Source: Candidatus Collierbacteria bacterium UBA2277 (GTDB lineage: Bacteria > Patescibacteriota > Microgenomatia > UBA1400 > MFAQ01). From it: a stretch of DNA of 64,000 bases. The stretch covers positions 419,844 through 483,843 of the forward strand of contig DDWV01000001.1 of NCBI GenBank assembly GCA_002347045.1, given 5' to 3'. Below are positions 1-42,222 of the stretch, piece after piece (within the stretch, counting starts at the first letter, position 1; each line of letters opens with the position of its first letter). The notes below the pieces were generated by a model, which was given only the letters and a program-made list of their open reading frames with translations, searched no databases and was not told the origin of the DNA. Made by a program: the position numbers and the translations under genes.

Positions 1-240
1 GCGTGGGCGGGCGCGCGGGCGACTACCACGAAAACGGGCGGGGAATCCCTTTCTGTTGTCTGTTATAACGAAATTCGAACTTATTTTCGGGACCATTACT
101 AATCTATTGGCTCACCGCTCCACACCTCGTGTCTCGCGGTTCGCCACCGACTCTGCCGTAACATCGGTTCGGACGATGGCTACCGCAGTAGCCATGACAG
201 AAAACGCAAAAATTAAAAAATTTCCTATAGTATTTTGATT
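1..240 (+). repeat. GC-rich structured mosaic repeat, copy 1 (modules A+B+C); extends upstream beyond window start
   Basis: Nucleotide identity of ~60-100 nt blocks with 2636-2830 (+) and 8860-8960 (minus strand); GC-rich and hairpin-rich in an AT-rich genome; ends in shared motif TGACAGAAAACGCAAAAAT...CCTATAG; spurious ORF 56..238 shares only nucleotide-level identity with ORF 8733..8954. Confidence 0.6.
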
Positions 241-3539: not shown

Positions 3540-3893
3540 CTACTTTTTTATTAGATGTTTCGTGTTATTTTCGATAGAATCCATCTTCTCTACTAGCTCA
3601 TCAAACCTCTCAGAAAGATCCTCATTTTGGGATCGTAATCCATATATTAGCACCAAGCAAGAGACCATTACTGCGAAGAATACTACGAACAGTGAATCCA
3701 TACCCATCCATTCGGTCAGCACATACCACAGGATTGAAGACCCAATTAGTGGCCAAAATAGCGCATTGATAACCTCAAGCCCTTGATTTAGTGATTCTTT
3801 TATATTCATATTGGTATTATATATCCTCAAAAAAACCGATCTGCTTGTCCACATATTAAGTTTTCTACAGTGATCAAAACATGTTAATCCCAT
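3540..3893 (-). CDS. small membrane protein (117 aa)
   Basis: ORF with two hydrophobic segments; overlaps end of 3874..4719 by 20 nt. Confidence 0.4.
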   Translation of the reverse strand: MGLTCFDHCRKLNMWTSRSVFLRIYNTNMNIKESLNQGLEVINALFWPLIGSSILWYVLTEWMGMDSLFVVFFAVMVSCLVLIYGLRSQNEDLSERFDELVEKMDSIENNTKHLIKK

Positions 3894-4719
3894 ATTTTAA
3901 TATCGATATATTATTGATTCCACCAACGAAAGCTTTATGCAAGTTAAAACATAAAGTGTGGTAATTCAAATAATAAAGATAAAAATCGGATACATTGACT
4001 CCCGACTCTAGAAATTCCATGTCGCGGTAGTTAGCTTTTATTCGATACCAATATAAAAACTCCCACAGGTTTAAATCTGTACTCGTTAGGAAATTAGTAT
4101 TATTAGCTCCTGTGAGGCGTTTTATATTTCTTCTTCTCTTAAAATCGTCTTTTTTGTAATCCAAAATCTTTTTAATTACTTGCCTGTATCTGGTCCTTGG
4201 ATCGGGATTTCCGATTACGATATTACTTCCCGACGGTATCATCCAAGATGAAGTTCTGGTCGCTGGAATAATTGAATTAAAATATGGCTCATTAAAAATG
4301 ATTTCATTGTTTCTTATTAATTCTTTAAGCCTGTGGTTTACAGCTTCATGTGTATTACTTAACCAACTAATATCATCATCGATTAGCCATTCTAGAATAA
4401 GGAGAAGATTGAAGAAGAGGTAATAACTTTTAACAGGAATCCACGAACTACATATTTGTGCGTAGTCCCTAAACTGATTGATTTGATCCATTTCAGAATC
4501 AATATTTTTCATAACTAACTTTGTAAGTCCGACCTTTTTTGTGACTTGAACTGGGACAGTATTTGAAATAGCAGAAAAATGTGCGGGAATGTTAATTGTC
4601 AGACCTCCAGAAATACCACTAATAAAGTTAAGGTAATTGGAGTGTGTGGTAAATTCTGCGTTTACAACTGGGGTAGATCCCACTGTCCTCCAACCAGAAC
4701 CGAGGTATGTTGCCGGCAT
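3874..4719 (-). CDS. hypothetical protein (281 aa)
   Basis: ORF; start codon overlaps the peptidase stop (4719); same operon as the ATP-grasp genes. Confidence 0.55.
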   Translation of the reverse strand: MPATYLGSGWRTVGSTPVVNAEFTTHSNYLNFISGISGGLTINIPAHFSAISNTVPVQVTKKVGLTKLVMKNIDSEMDQINQFRDYAQICSSWIPVKSYYLFFNLLLILEWLIDDDISWLSNTHEAVNHRLKELIRNNEIIFNEPYFNSIIPATRTSSWMIPSGSNIVIGNPDPRTRYRQVIKKILDYKKDDFKRRRNIKRLTGANNTNFLTSTDLNLWEFLYWYRIKANYRDMEFLESGVNVSDFYLYYLNYHTLCFNLHKAFVGGINNISILKYGINMF

Positions 4720-5228
4720 TATTTATAAACCGCGATCATTTGGCGAATGACCATGTCTTCCCATTTTTCGATATGGTCTGAGGTGAAGTCAAACCAAACT
4801 CGGATAAAATCTTCTTTGAGAAGCTTTCTCATTCTGCCAACTTCTGGATCTTGGAGATATATATTTTCCTCGTCCAAACCAACTACCACAGAATAGTGGC
4901 CGTCTGCTAAGTCATCTTCGTCGTAATCAGCCCTGCCTCTCGTCATCCAGTTCACAATTACAGGTGCTTTTTTGCCCAAAGCAACTTGGATGTCCTCAAA
5001 AGATGCAAAATTCTTTATTTCAACTTTTAGTCCTTCTCCTTCTAGTGTCCTTTTTATATCTTCGTCGCCAATTCCCAGATCATCGTCCTTGTTGGAAAGA
5101 ATAGCCACTTCAGCCTCGGTTTTATCGATGCCATAAAAATCCAAGACCATTTTAATGACGGCTGGGCCACAAAAACTACCATGTAGTGTTTCTTGAAAAG
5201 GTTTGACGGGAAGTAAGTTAGTATCCAT
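4719..5228 (-). CDS. papain-like cysteine peptidase, C39-like (Peptidase_C39_2/BtrH-like)
   Basis: N-terminal SFCGPAV catalytic Cys context and later DGHYSVVVG His context, ~170 aa size typical of C39-like domains. Confidence 0.55.
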   Translation of the reverse strand: MDTNLLPVKPFQETLHGSFCGPAVIKMVLDFYGIDKTEAEVAILSNKDDDLGIGDEDIKRTLEGEGLKVEIKNFASFEDIQVALGKKAPVIVNWMTRGRADYDEDDLADGHYSVVVGLDEENIYLQDPEVGRMRKLLKEDFIRVWFDFTSDHIEKWEDMVIRQMIAVYK

Positions 5229-5240
5229 GCGTATATTGTA

Positions 5241-6533
5241 CTATGTTAAGAGATTTTTCAGTTCTTCAGCAATATTTGTGGCTATTCCCAGATCATTCCC
5301 TATTGCCACATAACCCAAGATATGGTCAGTTTCATTAATTAAAGTGATAATGATTCCCTTTTTACTATCTTTTGAGTATATAAGGGTTGATACCCGAGAT
5401 AATAGCTCCCCGATTGATTTAATATCATCAATGTATTCAAAATGGTCGTTTGAGATAAAAGAGTGGTTTTGAAAATCGGCACCAAAAAGTCTTTTAGCGA
5501 GATCGTAAACATGCGTGCCACCTGTTCTGCGCGCATTTGTTTCTACGGCAAATATTTCTCCTGTTTTGGAAATTACATAATCAATATCAAAAATACCTTG
5601 ATAGCCCAGAGACTGGAAATGTTTTCCTATTACCAGAGCGGATTCTTCTAGCTTCTTTGCAATATCAAGAGGAATAGATCCATTGCCGACAACTGTTCCC
5701 TGAAACTCACCATTGATGACAATCTGTCCACAGAGATAGGTGATTTTTACTTCTGATTCCGTAACAAACAATTCAGCTGAAGGTGTTCCACCACCCACTG
5801 TCGCATCAACATCAATAAGTTCCTCAATAATATACGGCCCATTTGACCAAATTGTCTCAATAGTAACTTGGTTAATAAGAGAATCTGTTGTAGTCTGAGG
5901 ATCGTCAACTAAAATTAAACCCCATCCTGATTCTCCTTGATCGGCTTTGAGGGCGAAAGGTCGCTTGTTTGTTTTGAACCAATCGATTTTATTTTCTAGT
6001 TCCTCTATGGTTTGACAAATATAACCTTCAGGACAGCTAACGTTTAACTTTTCAACTTCTTTTCTAAACCCTGACTTTGAGTCCAAATATCTAATGAGAT
6101 CATACCCACCTTTTGATGGTTCGCCATCGACAAAGACATCTATTCCAATTTCTCTGGCTTTCTCGACTAATTCAAGAAAGCTTGATGTGATAGCATAAGG
6201 AGAAATAACAACATCTTTTTCACCAACTAATTCTTTGAAATTATATAAATCTATTGAATTTGAGAGATTTAATCCCCCATTCCTTGGAGAATAATTGCTG
6301 GTGTTTGAAAATTTCAAAATATTTGAATTGAGATCGAGAAGTTCTTCGGGGATTGAGAATGGGGTAACCACAATTTTATTGTCATCCTCCCAAAAGAAGG
6401 CTCTCTGAGAAAGGGCTAGCTCATGCCTGATCCTCTTTTGTCCTTCATCAGAACCACCGCTGGATACCAATATATCCTCAAAAGCTTCTGCTGTATTGGC
6501 GAATACAATGTTTATTGATTTTTCTGTTTCCAT
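5241..6533 (-). CDS. ATP-grasp domain ligase (carboxylate-amine ligase, biotin-carboxylase-like clade)
   Basis: C-terminal half with AVETNARRTGGTH (ExN.R ATP-grasp motif), 430 aa. Confidence 0.55.
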   Translation of the reverse strand: METEKSINIVFANTAEAFEDILVSSGGSDEGQKRIRHELALSQRAFFWEDDNKIVVTPFSIPEELLDLNSNILKFSNTSNYSPRNGGLNLSNSIDLYNFKELVGEKDVVISPYAITSSFLELVEKAREIGIDVFVDGEPSKGGYDLIRYLDSKSGFRKEVEKLNVSCPEGYICQTIEELENKIDWFKTNKRPFALKADQGESGWGLILVDDPQTTTDSLINQVTIETIWSNGPYIIEELIDVDATVGGGTPSAELFVTESEVKITYLCGQIVINGEFQGTVVGNGSIPLDIAKKLEESALVIGKHFQSLGYQGIFDIDYVISKTGEIFAVETNARRTGGTHVYDLAKRLFGADFQNHSFISNDHFEYIDDIKSIGELLSRVSTLIYSKDSKKGIIITLINETDHILGYVAIGNDLGIATNIAEELKNLLT

Positions 6534-6588
6534 TATCTTGATTTTAAATATAAAATACCCCCGACGCTATGTGCATCAGGGGTATATC

Positions 6589-7593
6589 TTAAACTAACTT
6601 TTCGCGACTGGCCGCTATGAGAATAATTCCCTCAATCAGATCTTCAAATCCTCGACCAGTGAAACTTGCCATCTTGGTCAAGGTATTATTTAATCCGTGA
6701 GAGTTTGGACCAATTCCAGGATTGTAATTGACTTCGAGTAGATAAATTTCTCCATCTGGGGTAACTCGGAAGTCCATTCGGGCATAATCACGGCACTCTG
6801 TAGCTCGAAAAGCGGTTTTTGTGAAATCAACCAGTTTTTCAATCACCGAACTTGGAAGATCTGCTCTGACCATCTTTTCCGTTTGCCCTCCCCATTTGTA
6901 CTCAAACGATCTGATTTTCAACAAATCATCTTGAGTATCGGGGAATTGAAACTCGAGCGGAGGAAGAACGATCAAGTTTGTGCCATTCCCAATTACGCCA
7001 ACCGAAATTTCTCGACCAACAATGAAAGACTCGACAATGGCCTGCTGGAAATAGTTAGAAATGATGTGGGCAACTTTGGCTCTCAACTCTGTTTCGTTTT
7101 TCACAACACAGTCTGCGTAAATTCCGATACTGCCTTCTTGCCGGATAGGTTTAACGATCGCCGGAAAGGAAATATTGGATTGGAGAACTTCGTCTGGACT
7201 ATCAAATCTTTGATATGGTGTAACAGGTACTCCATACCCCTGACAAACTAGTTTGCTTTTCTCTTTGTCCAAAGTTAGTTGCATATTCAAAGATGAAGCT
7301 CCTGTGAAAGGAATCCTCAGAGCTTCGAGCATAGCAGGGACAAGGGGTTCGTCTGTGTTTCCACCACCGAATGATTCAGCCATATTTAGAACAAGATCGA
7401 AAGTGCCGATCCGGCGGACAAGATCATTCCAGAGATTTTGAGTGGTTTCGAGGGTTTCGACCTCGTAGCCACGAGCCAGAAGCAATTCTTCGACAAGAGG
7501 GACAATAATTTCGATTTCGTGCTCACAGATGATATCTGAGGCCACTCCGACTCCAAGATCTCTAGCGACATTGTAAAGTACAAGGATTTTCAT
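6589..7593 (-). CDS. ddl: D-alanine--D-alanine ligase family ATP-grasp enzyme
   Basis: FGGGNTDEPLVPAMLEALRIPFTGASSLNMQLTLDK (Ddl N-domain pattern), AIVKPIRQEGSIGI, RMDFRVTPDGEIYLLEVNYNPG. Confidence 0.6.
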   Translation of the reverse strand: MKILVLYNVARDLGVGVASDIICEHEIEIIVPLVEELLLARGYEVETLETTQNLWNDLVRRIGTFDLVLNMAESFGGGNTDEPLVPAMLEALRIPFTGASSLNMQLTLDKEKSKLVCQGYGVPVTPYQRFDSPDEVLQSNISFPAIVKPIRQEGSIGIYADCVVKNETELRAKVAHIISNYFQQAIVESFIVGREISVGVIGNGTNLIVLPPLEFQFPDTQDDLLKIRSFEYKWGGQTEKMVRADLPSSVIEKLVDFTKTAFRATECRDYARMDFRVTPDGEIYLLEVNYNPGIGPNSHGLNNTLTKMASFTGRGFEDLIEGIILIAASREKLV

Positions 7594-7648
7594 AAATCCT
7601 CCTTTTTTATATATAGGATGATGTATTCTACACTATTTCCACCATCTT

Positions 7649-8533
7649 GTGCCTAGAATGTTTTTTGAATTATATTATCCAAGATCTCGATTTTTAGCTA
7701 TAATGCTAGGCATGGAAATGATGCATGGAGTTTTAACCTCTCTTTTTAAAATTGACACGGAAAAAGGTAAGGAAATCGGCTCAGCGTTTACGCCACTGTG
7801 CCATGAATTTAATCAATTTTTAGATCTACCGGCAGACAAAAAAGACATGCTTTTAGATCCGATTCTTTCTGTTATGAAAAAACTTGGAAGGATAGCAGAA
7901 GCAGTAGACCGATACGAAATCCTAGAAGAAGAGAAGATGGAAAATTTGATTAAACGAGCACAAAAAGACCAGAGTAGTGTTATCTTAAAACACGAAGACA
8001 GCTCAACCCAACTCGAAGGTGCGGTTGAAGACGTGATTAACAGTTCAAAGGCGGCTCTTGATGCGGCGGTGAAAATATTGAAACCATTATGGGGAATAAA
8101 TCTAACGACTTACGGTGATGCGGGTGAAAAGGTTGTAAAGGCTTTAAAAAGAAATATTCCTGATAAATTCCAACCTAACATAATCACGCTAGCTGAGGTT
8201 ATTCAGGAATGCTCTCCGTGGATACGGCTAATAAGAAACTTAAGGACAAAAACTGAACACCTGGGTGTAAATATAGTATCTCCTCTATCGGTGAGTATTA
8301 CTGACAAATTAGCTACAAAAGAATACCCTCTTGTTGACAAAAGTATACCTGCCAAAGAATTTGTAAACATTACATACAATAATATTTTCGTTTTTTTACA
8401 AGAATTCATTGTCTTATCTCTAGGATCAAGACTTTTATCAGGAATGATACCAGTCGTCGTAAGTGGTGAGGGGAAAAATCGAAAATTTGGCATAGCAATC
8501 AAAACTGTCGAGGCTCAAGACCCAAAAATCTGA
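7649..8533 (+). CDS. hypothetical protein (294 aa; alternative start at 7712 after a TATAAT at ~7699)
   Basis: ORF only; no recognisable domain. Confidence 0.5.
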   Translation: MPRMFFELYYPRSRFLAIMLGMEMMHGVLTSLFKIDTEKGKEIGSAFTPLCHEFNQFLDLPADKKDMLLDPILSVMKKLGRIAEAVDRYEILEEEKMENLIKRAQKDQSSVILKHEDSSTQLEGAVEDVINSSKAALDAAVKILKPLWGINLTTYGDAGEKVVKALKRNIPDKFQPNIITLAEVIQECSPWIRLIRNLRTKTEHLGVNIVSPLSVSITDKLATKEYPLVDKSIPAKEFVNITYNNIFVFLQEFIVLSLGSRLLSGMIPVVVSGEGKNRKFGIAIKTVEAQDPKI

Positions 8534-8534
8534 C

Positions 8535-8995
8535 TTAGTGCCTGCGAAGCAGGCACTTTGGCCGACAGGCCAATGCTGTCTCAAGGATTTAATACCCACT
8601 GATAAAATTTTCTCTTAATCAGTGGGTATTTATGGCGAGGAGATGCAATCTATATAGATTGCTTCGTCATTTCATTCCTCGCAATGACGATGTTCTTCCG
8701 AGCCATATATTGAGAAAGCTTCGCCACAATCACTAGATGTGATCTTGTGGCGAACATATAAGTGCGACAGCGATAGCTGGCACTTGCTCGCAAGAGCAAT
8801 CATCCCGACCGCAGTCGGGATACAATATTGGTATCGCGCGCAAGGGGTTCCGCCGGCAGGCGGTGGCGAACCGCGAGACACGAAGTGTTGAGCGGTGAGC
8901 CAATAGATTAGTAGTGGTCCCGAAAATAAGTTCGAATTTCGTTATAACAGACAACAGAAAGTGACAGAAAACGTAAAAAATAGGTTATGACCTAT
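8535..8995 (-). repeat. GC-rich structured mosaic repeat, copy 3 (composite: module D on + strand at left, modules B+A on minus strand at right, ~250 nt hairpin-rich unique core)
   Basis: 8541-8575 matches copy-2 5' part; 8860-8955 is the reverse complement of copy-1 5' part; 8960-8995 on + strand carries TGACAGAAAACGTAAAAAAT...CCTATAA end motif; several perfect hairpins (e.g. 8591-8628). Confidence 0.55.
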
Positions 8996-8998
8996 AAC

Positions 8999-34947: not shown

Positions 34948-35290
34948 TAGGGGTACTCCCGGGTGCTGGTGAGGAACGCTCCTTCGAGTAATCGAAGGGG
35001 AGGAAAGTCCGGACAGCTAAAAGATAAGGTGACCAGGGAAACCTGGTTTTCCGCCAAGTGATTGGTGGAACGCGATAGGGCCACAGAGACGAATAAAGGT
35101 GAAACGCTCTTGGATACAAGAGATTTCTTAAGAGTAATTTTAAGAAAGTGGTAACCCGCCCTGCTGCAATCGACGAATTGGGATTAAGGTATCTTTTCCG
35201 CCCCAAAAGTCTCGAGCATTAGACAGATGTTCCTCCTTGACAGAATCCGGCTTACTATGACCTGGGAGTCCCGAAAGGGTTTCCGCCAAA
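34948..35290 (+). ncRNA. rnpB: RNase P RNA (bacterial type)
   Basis: GAGGAAAGTCCGGAC, GGTGAAACG, ACAGAATCCGGCTTA conserved blocks; P1 pairing GGTACTCCCGGG / CCTGGGAGTCC; TATAAT just upstream; ORFs 34860..35084 and 34928..35206 are spurious. Confidence 0.8.
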
Positions 35291-42084: not shown

Positions 42085-42155
42085 CGGGGTGTAGTATAAC
42101 GGTAGTATTTGCGCATGGGGTGCGCAAGGCTGGAGTTCAATTCTCCACACCCCGA
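42085..42155 (+). tRNA. tRNA-Pro (anticodon GGG), no encoded CCA
   Basis: Acceptor CGGGGTG/CACCCCG, D-arm GTAT/GTAT (two G-U wobble pairs) with GG loop, anticodon stem TGCGC/GCGCA loop ATGGGGT, T-arm TGGAG-TTCAATT-CTCCA. Confidence 0.6.
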
Positions 42156-42222
42156 CAATATAAATAGGCTAGTTTCAGGGATGTGCCCTTCGCTTGTGAT
42201 ATTTGTTGTGATAAGTTCTCCA

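Follow-up and report, generated by a model that had tools for sequence, protein, structure and literature searches.

Close to one another on the minus strand of a 64-kb stretch of DNA from Candidatus Collierbacteria bacterium UBA2277 (hereafter the window, meaning all 64,000 nucleotides (nt) analyzed) lie two genes for ATP-grasp ligases, here called ddlL and grasp2, a gene for a C39-like cysteine peptidase and two further open reading frames (ORFs) of 281 and 117 amino acids (aa). An earlier note, made from the letters of the window alone, had described them as a tightly packed operon of five within a repeat-bounded accessory segment. All five minus-strand ORFs could be identified (Table 1), and the four long ones are real genes, each having tens to hundreds of homologs. 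The packing, on the other hand, is only partly as described. The stop codon of the C39 gene and the start of the 281-aa gene share one base (TAATG), and only 12 nt separate grasp2 from the C39 gene, whereas ddlL and grasp2 are separated by a spacer of 55 nt, and the 20-nt overlap between the 281-aa gene and the last ORF exists only with the longest start of the latter. In the public gene call this ORF starts 28 codons later, which gives a product of 89 aa and a gap of 65 nt.

Table 1. Genes and sequence features of the ddlL-grasp2-C39 locus (positions counted from the first letter of the window)
Feature	Position	Strand	Remark
ddlL, Ddl-family ATP-grasp ligase, 334 aa	6589..7593	(-)	First triad gene
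grasp2, PGM1/BesA-like ATP-grasp amino-acid/peptide ligase, 430 aa	5241..6533	(-)	Second triad gene
C39-like papain-fold cysteine peptidase, 169 aa	4719..5228	(-)	Third triad gene
281-aa orphan protein	3874..4719	(-)	Passenger; abuts the triad translationally in the window, not a member
117-aa small hydrophobic ORF	3540..3893	(-)	Unsupported passenger; more likely 89 aa, start at 3809
5' leader of ddlL	7594..7654	(-)	Strong Shine-Dalgarno AGGAGG at 7603-7598, 4 nt before the ATG (sequence reading)
GC-rich hairpin followed by a T-run in the ddlL/grasp2 spacer	6555..6585	(-)	Terminator/attenuator-like; 13-bp stem (terminator scan)
Right-hand structured repeat copy	8539..8996	(-)	Island boundary; inverted relative to 46-152 (107 nt, 95%)
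Left-hand copy of the same structured repeat	46..229	(+)	Third, partial copy at 2637-2799

The functional unit at this locus is a three-gene cassette of ddlL, grasp2 and the C39 gene (the triad), which is conserved across the Patescibacteria (candidate phyla radiation, CPR). Relatives of grasp2 were collected by a family search with one genome per species (206 relatives, 80 loci kept, numbered with the prefix L), and protein-context look-ups were added. About 25 of the 80 kept loci carried the triad, in both Microgenomates and Parcubacteria lineages. Among the 24 loci with a grasp2 ortholog (33-84% identity), ddlL was directly adjacent in 22 and the C39 gene in 22, and two of the four missing neighbors were accounted for by contig ends. 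The order of the genes was sometimes permuted (grasp2-C39-ddlL in L024 and L031), and more distant ddlL-C39-grasp2 triads could be identified in L041, L043 and L046. The members of the cassette are publicly labelled 'D-Ala-D-Ala ligase', 'hypothetical protein' and 'double-glycine peptidase', and no description of the cassette was found in the searchable literature. It should also be mentioned that a contig of 4.1 kb labelled Nanoarchaeota (L121) carries a complete triad beside a DDE transposase. Either the contig was mis-binned or this hints that the cassette is mobile, and so short a contig says nothing reliable on archaea.

The spacer between ddlL and grasp2 has a recurrent feature of its own. 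In the window it contains a strong hairpin and T-run (minimum free energy -22.4 kcal/mol, z = -5.1). Hairpins with z <= -2.4 were present in the same spacer in 14 of 21 cassettes, usually with a T-run and with stem sequences that are unrelated to each other; in the remaining seven cassettes the two genes overlap or abut. It is the structure of this element, and not its sequence, that is conserved, and it may work as a terminator or attenuator inside the cassette and so set the ratio at which ddlL and grasp2 are expressed.

In 13 of the 24 ortholog loci the triad was flanked, mostly on the same strand, by one to four accessory genes, all of which encode enzymes for making basic diamino or beta-amino acids or for converting them into one another. 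Their identities were checked on L028, which encodes an SbnA-family protein (403 bits, cut-off 350), an SbnB-family protein (330 bits, cut-off 327), a KamA-family radical-SAM aminomutase (244 bits, cut-off 199) and an enzyme of the diaminobutyrate-2-oxoglutarate-transaminase family (457 bits, cut-off 402). The KamA-like aminomutase was the commonest accessory neighbor. It keeps the equivalents of Asp293 and Asp330 of lysine 2,3-aminomutase (2A5H), residues that, according to the literature, hold the epsilon-ammonium group of lysine and are replaced in glutamate 2,3-aminomutase, so it is probably beta-lysine-forming. An SbnA/SbnB pair makes, according to the literature, L-2,3-diaminopropionate (Dap), and a variant triad has an arginase-family neighbor. 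In its seven-gene form (KamA-like gene, SbnA, SbnB, ddlL, grasp2, C39 and diaminobutyrate-type transaminase), observed in L019, L026-L028, L030 and L032-L037 and lying at 3814-11225 in L028, the cassette resembles a compact gene cluster for the biosynthesis of a peptide from basic, non-proteinogenic amino acids.

The product of ddlL is the best conserved of the three triad proteins, with 54-96% identity over 23 CPR loci and 54-61% between CPR classes. Its membership of the Ddl family, proposed in the earlier note, is borne out by the Pfam domain Dala_Dala_lig_C (PF07478; 1.3e-29, 103.6 bits vs 24), although the protein lies below every NCBIfam Ddl/Van cut-off (NF002378, 137.1 vs 243 bits; TIGR01205, 131.9 vs 245.65). 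The 23 family sequences were aligned to Escherichia coli DdlB, the sequence used for it agreeing with the PDB match 1iov. The DdlB residues E15, K97, K144, E180, K215, R255, D257, E270 and N272 were kept throughout the family. The D-Ala pocket of DdlB is, according to the literature, formed by the E15-S150-Y216 triad, H63 and S281/L282; E15 and L282 are kept, and the other substrate positions were invariantly changed in 23 of 23 sequences (H63G, S150A/G, Y216W and S281G). In addition, 11 residues are inserted in the N-terminal part and 5 in the C-terminal substrate loop. The alignment thus portrays ddlL as a Ddl catalytic scaffold with a remodelled pocket, and since three of the four changed positions are smaller (H63G, S150A/G and S281G, the fourth being the change of Y216 to Trp), this pocket is probably larger than that of DdlB.

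These features bear on the simplest explanation of the locus, namely that ddlL is a plain housekeeping D-Ala-D-Ala ligase whose neighbors are functionally unrelated to it. The public annotation (D-alanine-D-alanine ligase) agrees with such a role, as does the fact that no second Ddl homolog was found in the 64-kb window, which is part of a contig of 646,801 bp. However, grasp2 and C39 remain its neighbors throughout the CPR classes, including loci with a permuted order, and the sub-threshold scores, the changed pocket residues and the location in a variable island also speak against it. We regard this explanation as extremely unlikely.

For the second ligase, placement of which (as for ddlL) means a ranking of the nearest characterized matches, the earlier note had proposed an ATP-grasp enzyme of the biotin-carboxylase clade. 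The enzyme is a real ATP-grasp ligase, whereas the clade did not stand: its sole 'biotin carboxylase' match reached 15.9 bits, and it groups not with a PurK-type enzyme either but with PGM1, the 'ATP-grasp peptide ligase' 8ynd, BesA and LdmS. A single-sequence search of the PDB retrieved PGM1 (3wvq, 7e-8), and the family profile retrieved 8ynd (4.2e-15, residues 41-374), PGM1 (3wvq, 4.7e-12) and BesA (3e-10), which are the only solved relatives; LdmS was among the NCBIfam matches. All of these relatives link one amino acid to another or to a peptide. An ExNxR motif (E331, N333 and R335) and K196 are invariant in the family. Gottesmanbacteria, Collierbacteria, Chloroflexi and TM6 have a second tier of grasp2 paralogs (26-31% identity; L038-L093) without ddlL or C39 genes beside them, in neighborhoods that are conserved within lineages. 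An arginase-family protein and a methyltransferase adjoin the paralog in L043 and L068, and beyond this arginase-family neighbor the second-tier neighborhoods gave no functional clue.

The third member of the cassette had been described as a C39_2/BtrH-like peptidase, and this assignment is well founded. Both C39_2 (PF13529; 6.8e-12, 46.6 bits vs 24) and C39 (PF03412; 2.5e-8, 34.3 bits vs 22) were matched above the Pfam cut-offs, the catalytic residues Cys20, His111 and Asp127 and the oxyanion residue Gln12 are invariant, and the ortholog in L012 has a weak BtrH_N match. In PHROGs only weak endolysin-type matches were found. The family had 585 matches in a large protein database; each of the 120 listed homologs is a free-standing protein (115-177 aa; the small number of short ones are apparently partial gene calls). 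No signal peptide was seen by inspection, and all three triad proteins appear to be cytoplasmic by the same approach. The AlphaFold2 model (predicted local distance difference test score, pLDDT, 86) had fold neighbors at template modelling (TM) scores of 0.57-0.72, including leader peptidase domains of PCAT/ComA, PeiR, staphopain, Alr0975, which cleaves glutathione, and CtaG, a transacylase that forms amides. The top match was the C39 domain of PCAT1, followed by the pseudomurein endoisopeptidase PeiR, which had the highest TM-score (0.72); that of Alr0975 was 0.70. Judged from this model, the fold would suit a protease, an isopeptidase and a transacylase about equally.

C39 peptidases typically remove double-glycine leaders, and graspetide clusters are known in CPR. 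A hybrid pathway for a peptide made on ribosomes and modified post-translationally (RiPP), or a graspetide as the earlier note had suggested, might therefore be imagined, in which a ribosomal precursor is modified by the ATP-grasp enzymes (N-terminal acylation of the PGM1 type, or macrocyclization) and its leader is cut by the C39 enzyme; grasp2 is indeed related to PGM1, which acylates ribosomal peptides (PMC8939145). The comparative data do not favor this proposal. NCBIfam models of graspetide ligases (MvdC/MvdD-type) did not match grasp2 at E <= 0.1, and no RimK-like (MdnB/MdnC-type) macrocyclase match was obtained for either ligase in the NCBIfam, Pfam and PDB scans. No conserved small ORF was revealed when a precursor, as the earlier note had recommended, was sought among ORFs of 12-90 aa lying up to 1.5 kb from 25 cassettes; those that recurred all proved to be shadows, in another frame, of the transaminase, KamA or SbnA genes. 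No adjacent ABC exporter or precursor is conserved with the peptidase, none of the 120 listed homologs is fused to an exporter of the PCAT/ABC kind, and the peptidase is free-standing and cytoplasmic. Moreover, the neighbors of the cassette are enzymes that form amino acids, and not RiPP tailoring enzymes. A ribosomal origin of the product is thus quite improbable.

Taking these observations together, we lean, by a modest degree, toward the view that the triad builds a short non-ribosomal peptide with its two ligases and processes it with its peptidase; the dipeptide-type secondary metabolite that the earlier note had offered as one option is the reading favored by the comparative data. From the chemistry of the family, each ATP-grasp enzyme would convert a carboxylate to an acyl-phosphate and form one amide bond, so that the ligase product would be a di- or tripeptide made from free amino acids, with neither a ribosome nor a non-ribosomal peptide synthetase (NRPS). 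At least one building block would probably be a basic diamino or beta-amino acid, as the accessory genes in half of the cassettes suggest, and the peptide is probably cationic. The cytoplasmic papain-fold enzyme, with its Cys-His-Asp center, would then act on the ligase product, either by hydrolysis (maturation, removal of a protecting residue or turnover) or as a transpeptidase. One concrete possibility is that grasp2 protects and the peptidase deprotects, because BesA and BtrJ add a removable glutamyl residue. That the enzymes are competent is supported by the invariance of the ATP, Mg and catalytic residues in both ligases and of the catalytic triad and oxyanion Gln in the peptidase, whereas the order of the reactions, the class of the product and the role of the peptidase are inferred.

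Several observations weigh against this view. No accessory gene was present within 6 kb of the triad in the window locus and in 10 other loci, nor elsewhere in its 64 kb. A connection with basic amino acids is therefore extended to the window locus by orthology, and it may not be valid there. No conserved exporter or resistance gene accompanies the cassette, which would be unusual for a secreted bioactive peptide, and the conservation of ddlL between CPR classes looks more like that of a housekeeping gene than that of a secondary-metabolite gene. In addition, the peptidase fold is equally close to leader peptidases, to the cell-wall isopeptidase PeiR and to enzymes of small peptides. A more specific proposal, which we put forward only tentatively, is that the triad and its optional genes for beta-lysine, diaminopropionate and diaminobutyrate form a CPR-specific pathway, independent of ribosome and NRPS, to a new small cationic peptide or to a modification of the envelope or a protein by a peptide, and that these episymbionts with their reduced genomes would have retained it for envelope chemistry or host interaction.

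The similarity to PeiR and the nature of the accessory genes also bring the cell wall into consideration. Here ddlL would make an alternative dipeptide for the stem or add a residue to it, grasp2 would add a cross-bridge or side-chain residue, for which the enterococcal ATP-grasp D-aspartate ligase is a model, and the peptidase would trim or recycle the product. Diamino acids (Dap, diaminobutyrate, ornithine and lysine) are classic residues of position 3 and of the bridges of peptidoglycan, and those made by the accessory enzymes are of this type; ddlL is a strongly conserved member of the Ddl family with all catalytic residues, and it is the pseudomurein endoisopeptidase that gave the peptidase its highest TM-score. 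On the other hand, no mur, fts, fem or vanH/X gene was linked to the cassette in the annotated neighborhood of any locus, the three proteins look cytoplasmic, and ddlL scores far under the Ddl cut-offs and has lost residues of the D-Ala pocket. In the lineage of the window the cassette lies in a variable island, of which L009 has a version without it, and the triad is limited to about 25 of the 80 loci kept from 206 relatives. We therefore consider a role in wall synthesis rather unlikely.

Amino acids are also added to proteins, for example by RimK, by tubulin-tyrosine-ligase-like enzymes and in the beta-lysylation of EF-P. A writer-writer-eraser system could be envisaged on this pattern, in which the two ligases attach amino acids to a target protein, at a side chain or a terminus, and the peptidase removes the tag. 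ATP-grasp enzymes are generally known to act in this way in other systems, the commonest neighbor of the cassette is a lysine-type KamA/EpmB-like aminomutase, and the pairing of ligases with a peptidase would suit a reversible modification. No conserved candidate for a target gene is adjacent, however; the nearest characterized relatives act on small molecules or short peptides, and SbnA/SbnB and the transaminase suit the supply of a metabolite better. Protein tagging is thus an unlikely function, and assembly of a small peptide is the reading that we retain for the triad.

The two ORFs downstream of the triad have a different history. The window and L110 share nucleotide homology that ends exactly at the stop codon of the C39 gene (4719), and in L110 the bounding repeat directly follows the triad. 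The 281-aa gene occurs alone, in or beside type I, III and IIG restriction-modification genes and GmrSD, in L001-L006 and L009; only in the window and in L007/L008 does it adjoin the triad, and L120 shares that arrangement. For these reasons the five-gene operon is a composite, made up of the conserved triad, an independent 281-aa island gene and an unsupported 117-aa ORF, and the description of the five as one unit has to be abandoned. In a comparison of the window with L007, identity was 84-96% for the triad proteins and 65% for the 281-aa proteins, and the kilobase with the lowest GC content of the window (0.331) is that of the 281-aa gene and the 117-aa ORF. No homolog of the latter was found in 93 loci, and its Pfam matches were all sub-threshold (best DUF2304, 18.1 bits vs a cut-off of 25.5).

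The 281-aa protein itself had no Pfam, PDB or PADLOC match. Its family comprises 72 database matches, and 193 relatives were found in a profile search of 1.84 billion representatives; essentially all of them are <=290 aa long and show no sign of fusion to another domain. The AlphaFold2 model (pLDDT 91) is all-alpha, and a Foldseek search with it gave nothing significant in PDB or BFVD. A HEPN identity was considered and rejected, weak Pfam matches being seen in only 4 of 54 members. All homologs that carry an organism name come from CPR or unclassified bacterial metagenome-assembled genomes, and the family appears to be CPR-restricted. The residues H26, K62, E76, W93, K97, Y99, Y100, N104, H124, Y188, R226, K228, N230 and Y231 are invariant. 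We propose this family as a candidate new defence-island gene.

The segment that holds the locus is, as had been claimed, an accessory one bounded by repeats. The structured repeat, three copies of which lie in the window with the outer pair inverted, is GC-rich; its conserved core of ~95 nt is followed by a hairpin module, of which at least two alternatives exist. The predicted RNA fold of the left-hand copy has -52.4 kcal/mol (z = -3.05), and no Rfam match was found for the repeat. An exact 25-mer of the core occurs three times in the window (0 expected) and in 27 metagenome contigs, in several of which 100-170 nt separate it from a C39 gene upstream. In L007/L120, L009 and L110, from related Collierbacteria-like genomes, this repeat also bounds the corresponding segment, the cargo varying among them; copies were also located at 1579-1968 and 12659-12878 of L007 and in L094-L120, and L007 has a gene for a large serine recombinase immediately beyond its right-hand repeat. 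The block of homology that the window shares with L007 and L110 ends at 7654, in the leader of ddlL. Relative to L007, a gene for a 294-aa protein forms an insertion of ~880 bp between this leader and the bounding repeat; the protein (7649-8533, plus strand) has no family match and contains an RNLRTKTEH stretch resembling Rx4-6H. Other cargo of the island, all on the plus strand, includes a likely gene pair with overlapping stop and start, composed of a 268-aa protein with a weak PDC-M34A match (426-1232) and a 195-aa pPIWI-associated nuclease-like protein (pP_pnuc_1; 1232-1819), and a further defence-type gene for an HNH endonuclease-domain protein (1974-2630).

Such surroundings raise the question of whether the five genes serve as a toxin system or in defence against phages. 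Nuclease, HNH, SNase and restriction-modification genes surround the cassette in the window and in L007, and the 281-aa gene is consistently found beside restriction-modification systems. However, the only PADLOC match to any of the five proteins, between the peptidase and PtuA, was at chance level (E = 0.012, 12.6 bits); co-occurrence of the five genes does not extend beyond two close relatives, and viral contigs yielded no relative of either grasp2 or the 281-aa protein. Other CPR classes have the triad among housekeeping genes (such as S2, EF-Ts and a class-II aminoacyl-tRNA synthetase), so that it is this lineage, and not the cassette, to which the island context belongs. A defence function of the five-gene set is accordingly very unlikely. 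Elsewhere in the window we observed a bacterial class A RNase P RNA (34959-35269, plus strand; 112.9 bits) and a single tRNA, tRNA-Pro GGG (42085-42156, plus strand), and the 3' third is occupied by short, tightly packed minus-strand ORFs.

Genomes of CPR/Patescibacteria measure 0.6-1 Mb and have very little biosynthetic capacity. Many of these bacteria nonetheless keep a conserved cassette of three to seven genes for what would be amide-bond chemistry on unusual basic amino acids. Identification of the product would provide one of the first defined specialized metabolites or envelope modifications of the CPR, which is large and uncultured, and would add a carrier-free logic of 'two ATP-grasp ligases and a papain-fold enzyme' to NRPS-independent peptide synthesis. 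For genome annotation, members of this Ddl-like clade should not be taken to indicate a complete peptidoglycan pathway.

The cassette was compared with several known systems. With D-Ala-D-Ala ligases and VanA, ddlL has in common the Dala_Dala_lig_C domain and the catalytic residues, and it differs from them in its sub-cut-off scores, its four pocket changes, its loop insertions and the lack of linkage to mur, fts or van genes. Grasp2 resembles PGM1, 8ynd and BesA in the ATP-grasp core, the region of the ExNxR(T/S)GG motif and the length (~430-450 aa), although the E-values are only 1e-10 to 1e-15. Unlike the PGM1 system, the cassette has no genes for a PGM2-like ribosomal peptide, a polyketide or an amidinotransferase, and the partners of grasp2 are a Ddl-like ligase and a C39-like peptidase.

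Dapdiamide is an example of the L-amino-acid-ligase clusters that use Dap synthesis of the SbnA/SbnB type. Clusters of this kind and the extended cassette have in common a Dap-forming pair beside an ATP-grasp ligase and the logic of a short non-ribosomal peptide. They differ in that the ligases belong to other clades, and in that the cassette lacks fumaramoyl/epoxysuccinamoyl tailoring, possesses a second ligase and a peptidase, and resides in CPR hosts. Small-peptide metabolism of the glutathione/phytochelatin type, for which we take glutathionylspermidine synthetase/amidase as a further point of comparison, has in common with the cassette a papain-fold enzyme that acts on a small peptide made by an ATP-grasp enzyme, and Alr0975 is a fold neighbor of the peptidase. 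However, neither ligase of the cassette is related at the sequence level to GshA, GshB or Gsp, and there is no evidence of a thiol product. Finally, in the pathways of closthioamide (CtaD/CtaG) and butirosin (BtrJ/BtrH) an ATP-grasp enzyme and a C39/BtrH-like Cys-His-Asp enzyme take part in NRPS-independent amide assembly (PMC7183216). Those pathways are thiotemplated and need a peptidyl or acyl carrier protein, whereas no PP-binding carrier protein was present in the Pfam-annotated cassette loci (L007, L010, L011 and L012) and no conserved small protein cluster was found; CtaG (~300 aa) is also longer than the peptidase of the window (169 aa). The pairing of an ATP-grasp ligase with a C39/BtrH-like enzyme is nevertheless the same in both, and CtaG is itself among the fold neighbors of the window peptidase.

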